DNA of 36,323 nucleotides from a virus: IMG/VR virus record IMGVR_UViG_3300038317_000069, positions 1 through 36,323 of that record. One strand, written 5' to 3'. The position numbers and the translations under genes were made by a program. Of this stretch, positions 21,104 through 23,986 are shown piece after piece. A model generated the notes under the pieces. That model did no database searches and was not told the DNA's origin. It saw nothing but the letters and a program-made list of their open reading frames with translations. Within the stretch, counting starts at the first letter, position 1, and the number at the start of each line of letters is the position of its first letter.

Positions 21104-21802
21104 TTGGATGAAATAAGAGAAAAAGCAAAACAGGATTATATGAAGGGTATGAAATATAAGGATATATGTGCTAAATACAATATTGCAATGAACACCTTGA
21201 AGTCCTGGGTAAAAAGATATAGTTGGTCAGATGAAAGAAAAAAATTAAACGAAAAGGGTGCACACAAAAATAAAAGAGGTGCGCCCAAAGGGAATAAGAA
21301 TGCAATAGGTAATCCTGGAGGAGATGGTCCTCCTGAAGGCAATCTTAATGCAATAAAACATGGAGCTTATCAGTCCCTATATTATGAAATGCTTGGTACA
21401 GAAGATAAGATTTTATTTAATACAATACAACCTACTGTAAATATAGATGACGAAATAAAGATACTTAGACTTAAAATAGCGAGGCTTCTCAATCTAGAGA
21501 AGTCTTTTTTCTATAATGATTTTGGGGTGAAAAGAGATAAAGATGTATCTGAAGAAGAAAGAATAGCGGGTATTAATGCTTGCATGGACCAGCTAAGAAA
21601 ATTAATAGAAGTTAAGGCTAAAATGGCCACAGATACAGAAAAACTAGAGTTAGAAAAAGAAAAACTTGAATTCCAGAAATATAAAGCTGATATAGATTTA
21701 CAGCTAAAGAAAGAGAAATTAGAATTAGAAAAAAGCAAAATTGAAGATGATAATAATGACAGCCCGATGGAAATAATCATAAAGCGGAAGGGTGAGGAAT
21801 GA
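21104..21802 (+). CDS. terS: Terminase small subunit
   Basis: N-terminal HTH ([22 protein letters not shown]), then the glycine-rich [31 protein letters not shown] typical of this terS family. Its stop overlaps the terL start. Confidence 0.85.
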
Positions 21803-22119
21803 TGGCGGTAGTAAAAGAAGTTAATCCTCACTTTGAAGATTTTATATTTGATTGGAACTATAAGACTTATTTCCTTGTTGGTGGATATGGATCATCTAAG
21901 AGTTATCATGTAGCCCTTAAATTAATATTAAAGCTATTGCAGGAGAAAAGGAAAGCCTTAGTAGTTAGAGAGGTATTTGAGACTATAAGGGATTCTACCT
22001 ATGCTCTAATTGAAGAACTTATTAGTGATTTAGAGTTAGAAGGCATAGTAAAACCTAAAGTAAGTCCTATGAGGATAGATTTTCCTAATGGGTCCCAGAT
22101 AATATTTAAAGGAATGGAT
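21799..22119 (+). CDS. terL: Terminase large subunit, exon 1 (PBSX/Terminase_3 type)
   Basis: Walker A in [12 protein letters not shown]. The exon ends ...IIFKGMD at T22119. The track tail [11 protein letters not shown] is read-through into the intron. Confidence 0.85.
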
Positions 22120-23014
22120 AAACAAACCTGTCCATGTAAAACCTCTTTAATTCGGTGAAACCCCTAACGTAAAGACGAGGGCAATACCGAGCGAAGTTCA
22201 TTTATATACAAACAGTAATAGACAAGTATATGCCTTCTATGTTATAATAGACATAAGAGGTGATACTAATGAAGGAGATTTGGAAAGAAATAAAAGGTTA
22301 TGAAGGTTATTATGAAGCGTCAAACAAAGGACAAATAAGAAGTGTCCAAAGGGTAATAACTCTAGTAACGAGAGATGGCAAAGATAGACCAAGTGTGTTT
22401 AAAGGAAAAGTATTAAAACAAACAGATGAAATTAAAAACAGACACAATTGGTTACCTAGAAAATTTGTACAACTTTCCAAAGATGGGATAAGAAAAAGGT
22501 ATTATGTTCATAGACTTGTAGCTGAAACCTTTATTCCAAATCCTAATAATCTACCAGATGTAAACCACAAAGATGGAAATCCATTTAATAATAATGTAGA
22601 TAATTTAGAATGGTCTAGTAGAAAAAGAAATATAAACCATGCGTTCGATAACAAGCTTATTAAAACAGAAAAGCCAGTAGCTAAAATATCTATACAAACA
22701 GGTAAGGTTTTGGAGATATATAAAAGTGAAAGCGAAGCCTGTAGACAACACGGAGTAACGCAAGGCAAAATACTAAGGGCTATTCAAAGAAATGGAACAA
22801 GTTGTGGTTTTAAGTGGAAATATATAAATGAAAACGTGTAACGACTATCGAAAGCGAAAAGGAGTACTTGTTATAGTAGTCCTTTTTTAAGTGAGTAGAG
22901 TAGGGTTCAAGTGAACTCGAAACGGGAGGGGCAAAGAAATTTGTCAAGATATAGTCTGAACTCTATGGAGACATAGAGAGTTATAACGGAAACGGTTATA
23001 GCGTAACATAATTG
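22120..23014 (+). mobile_element. Group I intron (895 nt) carrying a homing endonuclease ORF
   Basis: The 5' exon end ATGGAT (22114-22119) pairs with the internal guide GTCCAT (22130-22135), with the canonical U-G pair at the splice site. The intron ends in G (23014). Structured flanks include TTCGGT/ACCGAG, CTCTATG/CATAGAG and a GAAA-tetraloop hairpin near 22985-23001. Removal restores GMD|[21 protein letters not shown] in frame. Confidence 0.8.
22269..22841 (+). CDS. Intron-encoded NUMOD4 + HNH homing endonuclease
   Basis: ATG 22269 after AGAGGTGA. WKEIKGYEGYYEASNKGQIRS is the NUMOD4 motif. HRLVAETFIPNPNNLPDVNHKDGNPFNNNVDNLEWSS is the HNH_3 core. The C-terminus has an I-HmuI-like DNA-binding repeat. 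Confidence 0.85.
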   Translation: MKEIWKEIKGYEGYYEASNKGQIRSVQRVITLVTRDGKDRPSVFKGKVLKQTDEIKNRHNWLPRKFVQLSKDGIRKRYYVHRLVAETFIPNPNNLPDVNHKDGNPFNNNVDNLEWSSRKRNINHAFDNKLIKTEKPVAKISIQTGKVLEIYKSESEACRQHGVTQGKILRAIQRNGTSCGFKWKYINENV

Positions 23015-23986
23015 AAGCCTTGGAAACTTAAATCTATTCATAATGTAACAATAATTTGGATTGAAGAAGCTTCAGAATTAAAATATGAAGGTTATAAAGA
23101 ATTATTAGGCAGAGCTAGACATCCAAGCCTATCAATTCACTTTATACTATCAACTAATCCTGTAGGAGAGGATAACTGGGTTTATAAGCACTTCTTTAAA
23201 GATGAGTTAAAGGGAACATTTATCCTGGATGATGAAGAACTATATAAGAAACGAACCATAATTAAAAACAATGTTTATTATCATCACTCCACAGCAGATG
23301 ATAATTTATTTTTGCCTCAAAGTTATATTGAGCAACTTGATGAACTTAAAGCATATGATCCAGATTTATATAGAACAGCAAGACGAGGAAGATTTGGAGT
23401 TAATGGCACTAAAGTATTGCCGCAATTTGAGGTTAAACCTCATGATGAAGTTATAGCAAAGGTAGGCAATATTCCACAAAGATTCCTAAGGAATGGAATG
23501 GACTTTGGGTTTGTTACTTCATATAATGCAGTAATAAAAATGGCCATTGACCATGATAATAAATGGTTATATATATACAAGGAATACTATAAAAATAACA
23601 TGACAGATGATAAAACAGCCAAAGAATTAGAAGATTTTATAGGCAAAGATGAATTAATAATAGCAGATTCAGCAGAACCTAAAACAATAACCTATTATAA
23701 ACAACAAGGATTCAAAATGATTGGAGCTAAGAAAGGGCCAGGAAGTAGATTACAAAACACAAAGAAGGTTAAGAGATTTAAGAGAATTATTTGCTCAGAT
23801 GAATGCAAAAATGCCATAAGGGAATTAAAAAATCTTACTTATGCTTTAGATAAACAAGGAAATATTATAGAAGATGAATTTAATATAGACAGTCATTGCC
23901 TTAGTGCCATGTGGTACGGTTTAGACGGTTACGAAGTTTCTGACTTAAAAGATAGAAAGAATTACTCAGGGAAAGGGAGAAGGTGA
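23015..23986 (+). CDS. terL: Terminase large subunit, exon 2 (ATPase Walker B and nuclease domain)
   Basis: Starts [21 protein letters not shown] (Walker B/coupling). Later [13 protein letters not shown]...ADSAEPK...H fits an RNase-H-like nuclease. Exons 1 and 2 together give about 430 aa. Confidence 0.85.

Follow-up and report, generated by a model that had tools for sequence, protein, structure and literature searches.

We analysed IMG/VR virus record IMGVR_UViG_3300038317_000069, a stretch of 36,323 nucleotides (nt) that we call the window, and found that its gene for the large terminase subunit (terL) is interrupted by an 895-nt insert with the features of a group I intron. A preliminary description of the window had proposed that two terL open reading frames (ORFs), which lie in different frames on either side of an HNH gene, are the exons of one gene, and that the intron between them carries a NUMOD4/HNH homing endonuclease. 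This central claim is borne out by an allele that lacks the insert, by matches to the Rfam model of group I introns, by an independently built covariance model, and by covariation in the helices. The coordinates in the preliminary description, including those of the two terL ORFs and the HNH gene between them, were all correct. Taken as a whole, it is very likely that this terL carries a mobile group I intron with its own endonuclease gene, which would be spliced out to give one TerL protein and would spread by homing.

An uninterrupted allele of terL

The exact boundaries of the insert are given by L004, a fermentation metagenome contig from ENA that is about 99% identical to the window on both sides of the insert and lacks exactly 895 nt. 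Positions 1-847 of L004 match 21275-22121 of the window at 99.1% identity, and positions 846-2936 match 23015-25105 at 98.8% identity, with a 2-nt (AA) ambiguity at the junction. The uninterrupted site reads AAAGGAATGGAT/AAGCCTTGGAAAC, where the slash marks the junction. Because the intron starts with AAA and exon 2 starts with AAG, the mRNA junction alone would also be ambiguous by 2 nt, but the rules for group I introns (a 5' splice site with a U·G pair, and a terminal G) fix it at 22119/23015. Indeed, the P1 helix that had been proposed, with its U·G pair at 22119/22130, can be read from the sequence, and the last nucleotide of the intron, at 23014, is a G.

Joining T22119 to A23015 restores the reading frame. 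The upstream ORF (21799..22158, 119 amino acids) corresponds to positions 3-90 of the Pfam family Terminase_3, and the downstream ORF (23012..23986, 324 amino acids, in another frame) corresponds to positions 90-201 of this family plus the Terminase_3C nuclease domain. The match becomes continuous only after joining: the joined translation has a single unbroken match to Terminase_3 (positions 3-201, E = 9.5e-72). Furthermore, a protein search with the spliced TerL found P0001, the TerL of L004 (429 amino acids), which is the predicted spliced protein with a single substitution (F103V). The protein of the intron-less allele begins at the second methionine of exon 1 (21802).

More distant relatives are also uninterrupted. 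The best 120 homologues of the spliced TerL are all single proteins of 405-451 amino acids, and the named sources include prophages of Tissierella, Wansuia, Clostridium, Paenibacillus, and Parageobacillus. All ten of the homologues that we aligned are continuous across KGMD-KP.KLKS, and none of the 72 relatives from IMG/VR has an interrupted terL. (The IMG/VR relatives were fetched with six search peptides; one of these spans the junction and the other five do not.) The alignment with intron-less homologues that had been suggested as a check thus confirms the junction, both with L004 and with the ten TerL proteins. It also removes the possibility that the two pieces exist naturally as distinct polypeptides, as homologous terL genes encode single polypeptides. 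As expected for a mobile intron, the insert is present or absent at one precise site: it is absent from L004 and from the 72 IMG/VR relatives and present in two contigs with diverged terL genes (L079 and L077, described below).

For this locus we propose the annotation of a single spliced terL, join(21799..22119, 23015..23986), with an intron-encoded endonuclease, in place of two terminase fragments and an HNH gene. The corrected annotation of terL bears on terminase-based classification of phages and on the prediction of packaging type.

From -318 to +879 relative to the junction, L004 and the window differ at just one position (G/T at -14, which gives V/F103), compared with 32 mismatches in the other ~1.7 kb that align. 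The mismatches occur in tight clusters, and purifying selection acts on terL. This unevenness could be a co-conversion tract from a recent homing event, or it could reflect mosaic recombination together with purifying selection on terL.

A conserved and covarying group I core

In a scan of 1 kb, the Rfam model Intron_gpI gave two partial matches, one in each flank of the endonuclease ORF, in the correct order and on the correct strand. The match at 22152-22227 (+ strand) covers P4-P5-P6 in the model (positions 60-138, 23.7 bits, E = 1.3e-3). The match at 22856-22978 (+ strand, 32 bits, E = 3.9e-6) takes in P8, P9, and the J8/7-P7 motif AAGAUAUAGUCU, which agrees position for position with the consensus of Rfam RF00028, AAGAUAUAGUCu.

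We also built a covariance model (R1) from the 3' domains of 21 relatives (alignment A3), with the window excluded. When run on the whole window with the filters off, it gave a full-length match at 22831-22981 (82.3 bits, E = 1.9e-16). We attribute the next-best match, at 34329-34473 (+ strand, 15.6 bits, E = 0.078), to chance, as several of its pairs are non-canonical and neither the AACGACUA nor the GAUAUAGUC motif is present in it.

Because we compared compact introns that lack an ORF, the order of the helices is unambiguous: P1, (no P2), P3, P4, P5, P4', P6, a loop with or without an ORF, P6', J6/7, P7 (AACGACUAU), P7.1, P7.2, P3', P8, J8/7-P7' (GAUAUAGUC), P9, P9.1, and a tail that ends in AAU(U)G. 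Relatives without an ORF have a short P6 hairpin where the window has its ORF. In a core that we had drawn by hand, the 5' strand of P3 was paired with AAGAGGU (22255-61) in the Shine-Dalgarno sequence of the ORF, P7 was assigned to AGAC (22250-53), and the ORF fell between P3' and P8. We rejected it because phages L001, LBR48, r1t, and IPP23 and the compact introns have the conserved AACGACUAU on the 3' side of the ORF, as P7, and a covarying P3' just 5' of P8.

Covariation was computed for 26 introns, including that of the window, after deletion of their ORFs (MAFFT alignment A2; 38 pairs, 988 cells). Standard pairs fill 98.1% of the cells, versus 31-40% if the partners are slid by ±1-3 columns and 73% in shuffled alignments. 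Compensatory changes on both sides are found in 23 of the 38 pairs, distributed over P3, P4, P6, P7.2, and P9 (Table 1), and the covariation score is 0.649 versus 0.166 in shuffles. None of 500 shuffles reached the observed percentage of paired cells, number of two-sided pairs, covariation score, or number of two-sided cells; for further pair types, 5 of 500 did. P5 and P7 are invariant and have no compensatory pairs, and the same is true in kind of the AACGACUA motif at P6'-P7 and of the GAnAUAGUC core, which do not vary within the family. As the relatives were chosen by their P5 and P7/J8/7 motifs, this invariance is not evidence of covariation. P8 was left out of the counts because its stems are one column out of register between subgroups in the MAFFT alignment. 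In L079, which has an intron at the same site, P8 is ACAAC-GGAA-GUUGU, which is compensatory with respect to the GCAAA/UUUGU of the window.

The sequences on either side of the endonuclease ORF had been described as structured flanks of about 150 and 170 nt with several hairpins, one of them with a GAAA tetraloop. They are 149 and 173 nt long, and GAAA tetraloops cap both P8 and P9.1, while P9 is capped by a GAGA loop. For the 3' flank, the folding energy is -46.6 kcal/mol (z = -4.0 compared to shuffles), and the minimum free energy (MFE) fold contains P7, P7.1, P7.2, P8, P9, and P9.1.

Judged by its sequence, the insert is a group I intron with a conserved P3-P8 core, including the P3/P7 pseudoknot; the preliminary description would have been overturned by the lack of a P3-P7 core, and that core is present. 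The intron appears to be IA2-like, an assignment by architecture only: P7.1 and P7.2 are located between P7 and P3', and the intron has P9 and P9.1 and lacks P2. (Subgroup IA2 is recognised by two hairpins in domain 7, P7.1 and P7.2, and by an extended domain 9; PMC4227781.)

An endonuclease gene within P6

The ORF in the P6 loop matches the Pfam families NUMOD4 (47.6 bits, E = 2e-12; cut-off 23.4) and HNH_3 (33.7 bits, E = 2.8e-8; cut-off 24.8). Its product is similar over its full length to I-HmuI (PDB 1u3e; E = 2.4e-16, 63 bits over two aligned stretches), and the HNH motif, HKDGN...NN...NL, is aligned, with VNHKDGNPFNNNVDNLEW in the window and VDHKDGNKDNNLSTNLRW in I-HmuI. Close homologues (59-98% identity) occur on about 30 metagenomic contigs, most of them short. 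By homology, the product is an HNH homing endonuclease of the I-HmuI type. I-HmuI is a nicking enzyme from the DNA polymerase intron of Bacillus phage SPO1, and the two proteins share a NUMOD4-like N-terminus, the HNH motif, and a C-terminal DNA-binding region. In contrast to I-HmuI, the enzyme of the window is found in terL and is known from its sequence alone, and the similarity between the two is remote.

The endonuclease is probably expressed from a promoter-like site within the intron and from its own Shine-Dalgarno sequence. The site, TAGACA and (TG)TATAAT separated by 18 nt, is the best promoter-like site between 21000 and 24200, with 11 of 12 matches plus the TG. An equivalent TGnTATAAT lies upstream of the ORF in the introns of L001, L035, L076, L077, L079, and phage Twort, and the records of Romulus and Remus have a "promoter" feature among those under the match. 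We also considered whether P3 might sequester the Shine-Dalgarno sequence. The complementarity amounts to 7 base pairs (bp) in both the window and L079 but drops to 4 bp in L001 and to none in L077, so it is most likely a coincidence of purine and pyrimidine runs.

P7.1 resembles an intrinsic terminator (an A-tract, a stem, and a U-run) and lies directly after the stop codon of the endonuclease and the 5' strand of P7. Similar hairpins with a U-run are found in L035, LBR48, r1t, IPP23, L077, and L079, and the compact relatives without an ORF have only a 4-bp GNRA hairpin in its place. If P7.1 did terminate transcription, then both the endonuclease transcripts and the terL pre-mRNAs would end before P3', P8, and P7', and TerL would need read-through as well as splicing, which would be a real checkpoint on a late gene, of the sort suggested in the preliminary description. 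However, a scan for the terminator consensus did not call P7.1, and the U-run is largely explained by its pairing with the upstream A-run, so a terminator here is unsupported. We consider it quite improbable that the intron is a self-contained expression cassette, with its own promoter and with P7.1 as its terminator, that also throttles terL.

Table 1. Positions of the terL exons, the intron, its helices, and its putative expression signals (all on the + strand). "Compensatory" gives the pairs with changes on both sides; "paired" gives the cells with standard pairs.
Feature	Position	Strand	Description
terL exon 1	21799..22119	+	Walker A GGYGSSKS; terminates with ...FKGMD; Pfam Terminase_3 3-90
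P1	22114..22135	+	exon AUGGAU (22114-19) with guide GUCCAU (22130-35); U22119·G22130 at 5' splice site; 10-nt loop
Group I intron	22120..23014	+	895 nt, phase 0, IA2-like without P2; evidence: empty site, Rfam, family covariance model, covariation
P3, 5' strand	22142..22147	+	CCUCUU; pairs with GGGAGG (22924-22929) across the ORF; 95.5% paired; compensatory 5/6
P4 + P5	22152..22190	+	P4 UCGGU (22152-56)/ACCGA (22186-90), 100% paired, compensatory 5/5; P5 CCC (22161-63)/GGG (22179-81)
Stem inside P5	22168-69/22176-77	+	CG/CG
P6, 5' strand	22191..22193	+	GCG; pairs with CGU (22835-22837); compensatory 2/3; loop holds promoter-like site and whole endonuclease ORF
Sigma-70-like promoter site	22219..22248	+	TAGACA, 18 nt, (TG)TATAAT; upstream of Shine-Dalgarno sequence and of ATG at 22269
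Shine-Dalgarno sequence	22255-62	+	AAGAGGUG; 5' of endonuclease start
NUMOD4 + HNH endonuclease ORF	22269..22841	+	190 amino acids, 573 nt; in P6 loop; last codons overlap P6'
P6', J6/7, P7 5' strand	22835..22848	+	CGU (22835-37), GUAAC, GACUAU (22843-48); pairing in MFE fold
P7.1	22857..22888	+	extended hairpin flanked by A and U, AAAAGGAGUACU ... AGUAGUCCUUUU, two more U after; MFE fold
P7.2	22903..22918	+	GGGUUC-AAGU-GAACUC; 99.4% paired; compensatory 6/6; MFE fold
P3, 3' strand	22924..22929	+	GGGAGG; partner of 22142-22147
P8	22930..22945	+	(G)GCAAA-GAAA-UUUGU(C); Rfam, covariance model alignments, MFE fold
J8/7 + P7 3' strand	22946..22960	+	AAGAU + AUAGUC (22951-56) + UGAA = AAGAUAUAGUCU; Rfam consensus
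P9	22961-78	+	CUCUAUG-GAGA-CAUAGAG; 99.5% paired; compensatory 5/7; MFE fold
P9.1	within 22981-23001	+	UAUAACG-GAAA-CGGUUAUA; MFE fold
3' tail	23002..23014	+	CGUAACAUAAUUG; terminal G (omega-G) at 23014
terL exon 2	23015..23986	+	from KPWKLKS; Walker B IIWIEE, remaining ATPase, RNaseH-like nuclease domain

Predicted splicing and alternative explanations

We infer that the intron is spliced by the usual two steps. The RNA would fold into the P3-P9 core, which would join one half in the upstream 149 nt to another in the downstream 173 nt, on either side of the 573-nt ORF looped out from P6. An external guanosine bound in P7 would attack after U22119, which would be held in the U·G wobble of P1, and the freed 3'-OH of exon 1 would then attack after the terminal G23014. 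Ligation would join ...FKGMD to KPWKLKS... and yield a full-length PBSX-type TerL (429/430 amino acids); unspliced RNA would give only the 119-amino-acid fragment with Walker A. By inspection, exon 2 lacks both a Shine-Dalgarno sequence and a plausible start codon of its own, so the formation of TerL, and hence packaging, should require splicing. In co-infecting relatives, such as those with the L004 allele, the HNH enzyme would nick or cut terL copies without the intron near AAAGGAATGGAT/AAGCCTTGGAAAC, and the intron would spread when the damage is repaired from the copy that contains it (homing).

Several observations weigh against this account. No match reaches the gathering score of Rfam (50 bits for RF00028, Intron_gpI), which is a score cut-off and not a structural criterion, and a scan of the entire window by E-value retained neither of the two partial matches after the filters. 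The Infernal check that had been recommended therefore succeeded in that Intron_gpI matches both flanks, and failed in that it does so below the gathering score. That score was missed because the 573-nt ORF in P6 splits the core, as has been reported for many phage introns with ORFs (PMC11878797), and the partial matches appear only in the 1-kb scan because the filters are stricter with more sequence. P7 and J8/7 are invariant in a set that was selected by these motifs, so they have no support from covariation. Between exon 2 (AAGCCU) and the P1 loop, we could not draw a P10 pairing of more than 1-2 bp. The element also shows some gene decay, as its integrase gene is frameshifted. Finally, some phage terL introns with good cores were spliced in vivo and failed to self-splice in vitro (PMC11878797), so strict self-splicing is not guaranteed here.

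These last cases, which include polymerase introns as well as terL introns with recognisable cores, suggest that the insert might be a real group I-derived intron that is not autonomous and that needs a phage or host protein factor or particular conditions in vivo. The lack of P2 and of a clear P10 by inspection would fit with this, as would the separation of the core halves by 573 nt of ORF in P6. We think that it is unlikely, although it deserves some weight, because all of the core helices are intact and under compensatory selection, P8, P9, and P9.1 have GNRA tetraloops, and similar cores are found in a family with many compact members that lack an ORF. The preliminary description had also suggested that the intron acts as a checkpoint on late-gene timing or on host dependence, which resembles a published speculation about a "molecular on-switch" (PMC11878797); we found no support for this idea in this sequence.

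Explanations without a functional spliced TerL fare worse. The frameshifted and N-terminally truncated integrase gene (~8027..8883, - strand) might indicate a defective element, in which case the intron would be a decayed relic and terL a pseudogene with no functional product. But this is scarcely credible given that both exons are open and 99% identical to the uninterrupted allele, that every core helix is intact, that the HNH ORF is intact with its catalytic motif aligned to that of I-HmuI, and that the contig closes on itself and has a full set of replication and morphogenesis genes. There is next to no chance that a free-standing HNH cassette split terL and that the two products reassemble, without splicing, into a two-piece terminase. 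It is true that automated annotation reports two terL ORFs, both in the window and in related phages, and that split phage genes interrupted by homing endonuclease genes are known, such as nrdA of Aeh1. However, a mere cassette would have no need of a complete and covarying group I core; the ORF of exon 2 opens with a TTG that is made of the final 3 nt of the intron and has no Shine-Dalgarno sequence upstream; the ORF of exon 1 continues for 13 codons into the sequence of P1-P4 before it reaches a stop; and in every case from the same family that we examined, the ends of the insert conform to the rules of the U·G pair and the terminal G. An intein, a group II intron, and an IStron are excluded by the stop codons and out-of-frame position of the insert, by its group I core, and by its lack of a transposase: the HNH gene is the sole ORF of at least 60 amino acids on the + strand of the intron, and none encodes a transposase.

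Related introns in other phages

Using an 18-mer that covers the guide sequence and P3, we found two other introns at the same site, in IMG/VR contigs L079 (UViG_3300006601_000377) and L077 (UViG_3300045988_001951). Both have the phase (0), the internal guide sequence (GUCCAU), the architecture, and the HNH ORF of the window's intron, and the junctions read KGMD/KPAKLKS in L079 and KGMD/NPEKIKS in L077. They differ from the window in that their host terL genes have diverged (L079 is 77% identical to the window over the whole of terL and the intron) and in that their helices have compensatory changes. In two further IMG/VR contigs, L078 (~841, - strand) and L080 (~6674, + strand), the exact 18-mer follows ...ATGGAT at the junction and is then followed by a different downstream core. 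This hints that the P1-P3 targeting module may be exchanged between intron scaffolds.

A BLAST search of phage records showed that both flanks of the ORF match the split terL of the Clostridium perfringens podophages CPQ4 (L001) and vB_CpeP_PMQ04, and that the 3' domain has matches in intervening sequences of Lactococcus phage r1t, of Streptococcus phage IPP23, and, within terL, of Lactobacillus phage LBR48. The introns of CPQ4, of vB_CpeP_PMQ04, and of the metagenomic phages L035 and L076 belong to the same ribozyme family as that of the window: P4-P5 are nearly identical and the order P6'-P7-P7.1-P7.2-P3'-P8-P9 is shared. L001, L035, and L076 also have a NUMOD4/HNH ORF in the P6 loop behind a TGnTATAAT, and their tail, GUAACAnAAU(U)G, is related to that of the window (CGUAACAUAAUUG). 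Unlike the window's intron, they are inserted at Walker B (W/FEE, phase 2), about 15 codons downstream, and have other guide sequences. The intron of LBR48 (L006) has a 3' domain of the same family, a P3 of CUCCAU/AUGGAG, and the same terL motif at its site (IIF[KR]G-[ML]D-.P.K). In contrast to the window, its insertion point is 5 nt upstream and interrupts the Leu codon of FRG/LDD (phase 1), its endonuclease is annotated as GIY-YIG, and its P5 is UCU/AGA. L001, L035, L076, and LBR48 likewise have readable P1 helices that include a U·G pair, and their junctions give open frames. A related tail that ends in G, GYAACAnAAU(U)G, lies directly 5' of exon 2 in these four and in L077 and L079, and again the joins are open.

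The terL introns of Twort (L002) and of Kayvirus and Silviavirus (L008) are about 81% identical at the nucleotide level to the window over P1'-P3-P4-P5-P6 (window 22129-22220). The annotation of Twort shows terL as three joined pieces with the intron-encoded IepA and IepB; an internal promoter-like site (TTGACT-17-TATAAT) is also present. Unlike in the window, the ORF in introns of this type is between P7 and P3', so the scaffold tolerates an ORF in at least two loops; the 3' domain and the TerL family are different as well. We make no claim about the insertion site in Twort, as the 3' splice site that we guessed gave no open frame across the exon junction. The ORF lies in the P7.1/P7.2 region, between P7 and P3', in L002 (Twort, 3028-4260), L008, L012, L014, and L022. 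In L003 (Vibrio phage 1.193.O, 3144-5136), a terminase-like gene is annotated as at least three fragments with two GAUAUAGUC motifs between them, at 3821 and 4289; this gene probably holds two or more group I introns.

A 29-nt P5/L5 motif, GAAACCCCTAACGTAAAGRCGAGGGCAAT, occurs exactly in 63 contigs from IMG/VR and in 5 contigs from metagenome-assembled genomes (MAGs), and many of these matches are in compact introns without an ORF, whose length is roughly 250-300 nt as judged by eye. The labels of the MAGs are Peptococcaceae, Johnsonella, Selenomonadaceae, and, for one bin, Gammaproteobacteria, and Vibrio phage 1.193.O also has a match. By these labels, the ribozyme scaffold spans far more hosts than the Firmicutes.

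Among well-known introns, that of the T4 td gene is a phage IA2 intron whose ORF (I-TevI) is looped out of P6, with promoters within the intron driving its expression. The likeness to the window is by description only, and the td intron differs in its GIY-YIG enzyme, in its host gene (thymidylate synthase), and in having P2. IStrons, which combine an IA2 intron with IS200/IS605 (PMC4227781), share with the window an IA2-type core, P7.1/P7.2, an extended P9, and Clostridia-type genomes. In contrast to the window's intron, they carry transposase ORFs at the 3' end; with its HNH ORF in P6 and no transposase, the element in the window is not an IStron.

As cited in PMC4299906, group I introns in terL have been known since that of LL-H in 1995, and PMC4299906 describes them in LL-H and in Bacillus phage Moonbeam. 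Introns in terL were also found in 5 of 52 Bastillevirinae, with splicing demonstrated (the terL intron of SIOphi; PMC11878797). Like the window, these are cases of a group I intron in the terL of a Firmicutes phage, often with an ORF for a homing endonuclease, but they are from other phage lineages and another TerL family, as the window has a PBSX-type Terminase_3 (for LL-H, the comparison is to the literature only). The earlier statement that such an intron is uncommon thus holds within this clade of TerL, where we saw none among the 72 IMG/VR relatives and found the two same-site cases by way of the intron. It does not hold for phages in general, given the introns in LL-H, Moonbeam, Twort, the Bastillevirinae, LBR48, and the C. 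perfringens phages. Terminases are among the typical targets of homing endonucleases (PMC3984707), and one IA2-like scaffold is found at no fewer than three positions in the ATPase motifs of terL (KGMD/KP, FRG/LDD, and W/FEE), with different guides and different families of endonuclease. This distribution fits with terminases being a preferred landing pad for homing elements. Both terL group I introns and endonucleases of the I-HmuI type were already established, so the intron of the window opens no new question.

Genome context

The first 99 nt of the window are identical to the last 99 (36225-36323), and with 100 nt the identity ends. This probably reflects overlap in the assembly of a genome of ~36,224 bp that is circular or circularly permuted, so that the window would be a complete phage genome. 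The tyrosine integrase gene (8027-8883, - strand) is broken: its N-terminal part, which ends with ...KSIKLKY and a stop, and its catalytic part, HDLRHT...LGH...LYSHV, are in different frames. The integrase lacks the expected N-terminal arm-binding region, and its gene adjoins that of an XRE-type repressor (9048-9440). It is either a pseudogene, which would make this a formerly temperate phage, or the result of a sequencing frameshift. Otherwise, the window has the gene set of a siphovirus, with tail genes, a GH25 lysin, the XRE-type repressor, Gam, Sak4, a helicase, and a primase, and it also encodes terS, the split terL, a portal protein, a scaffold protein, and a major head protein.

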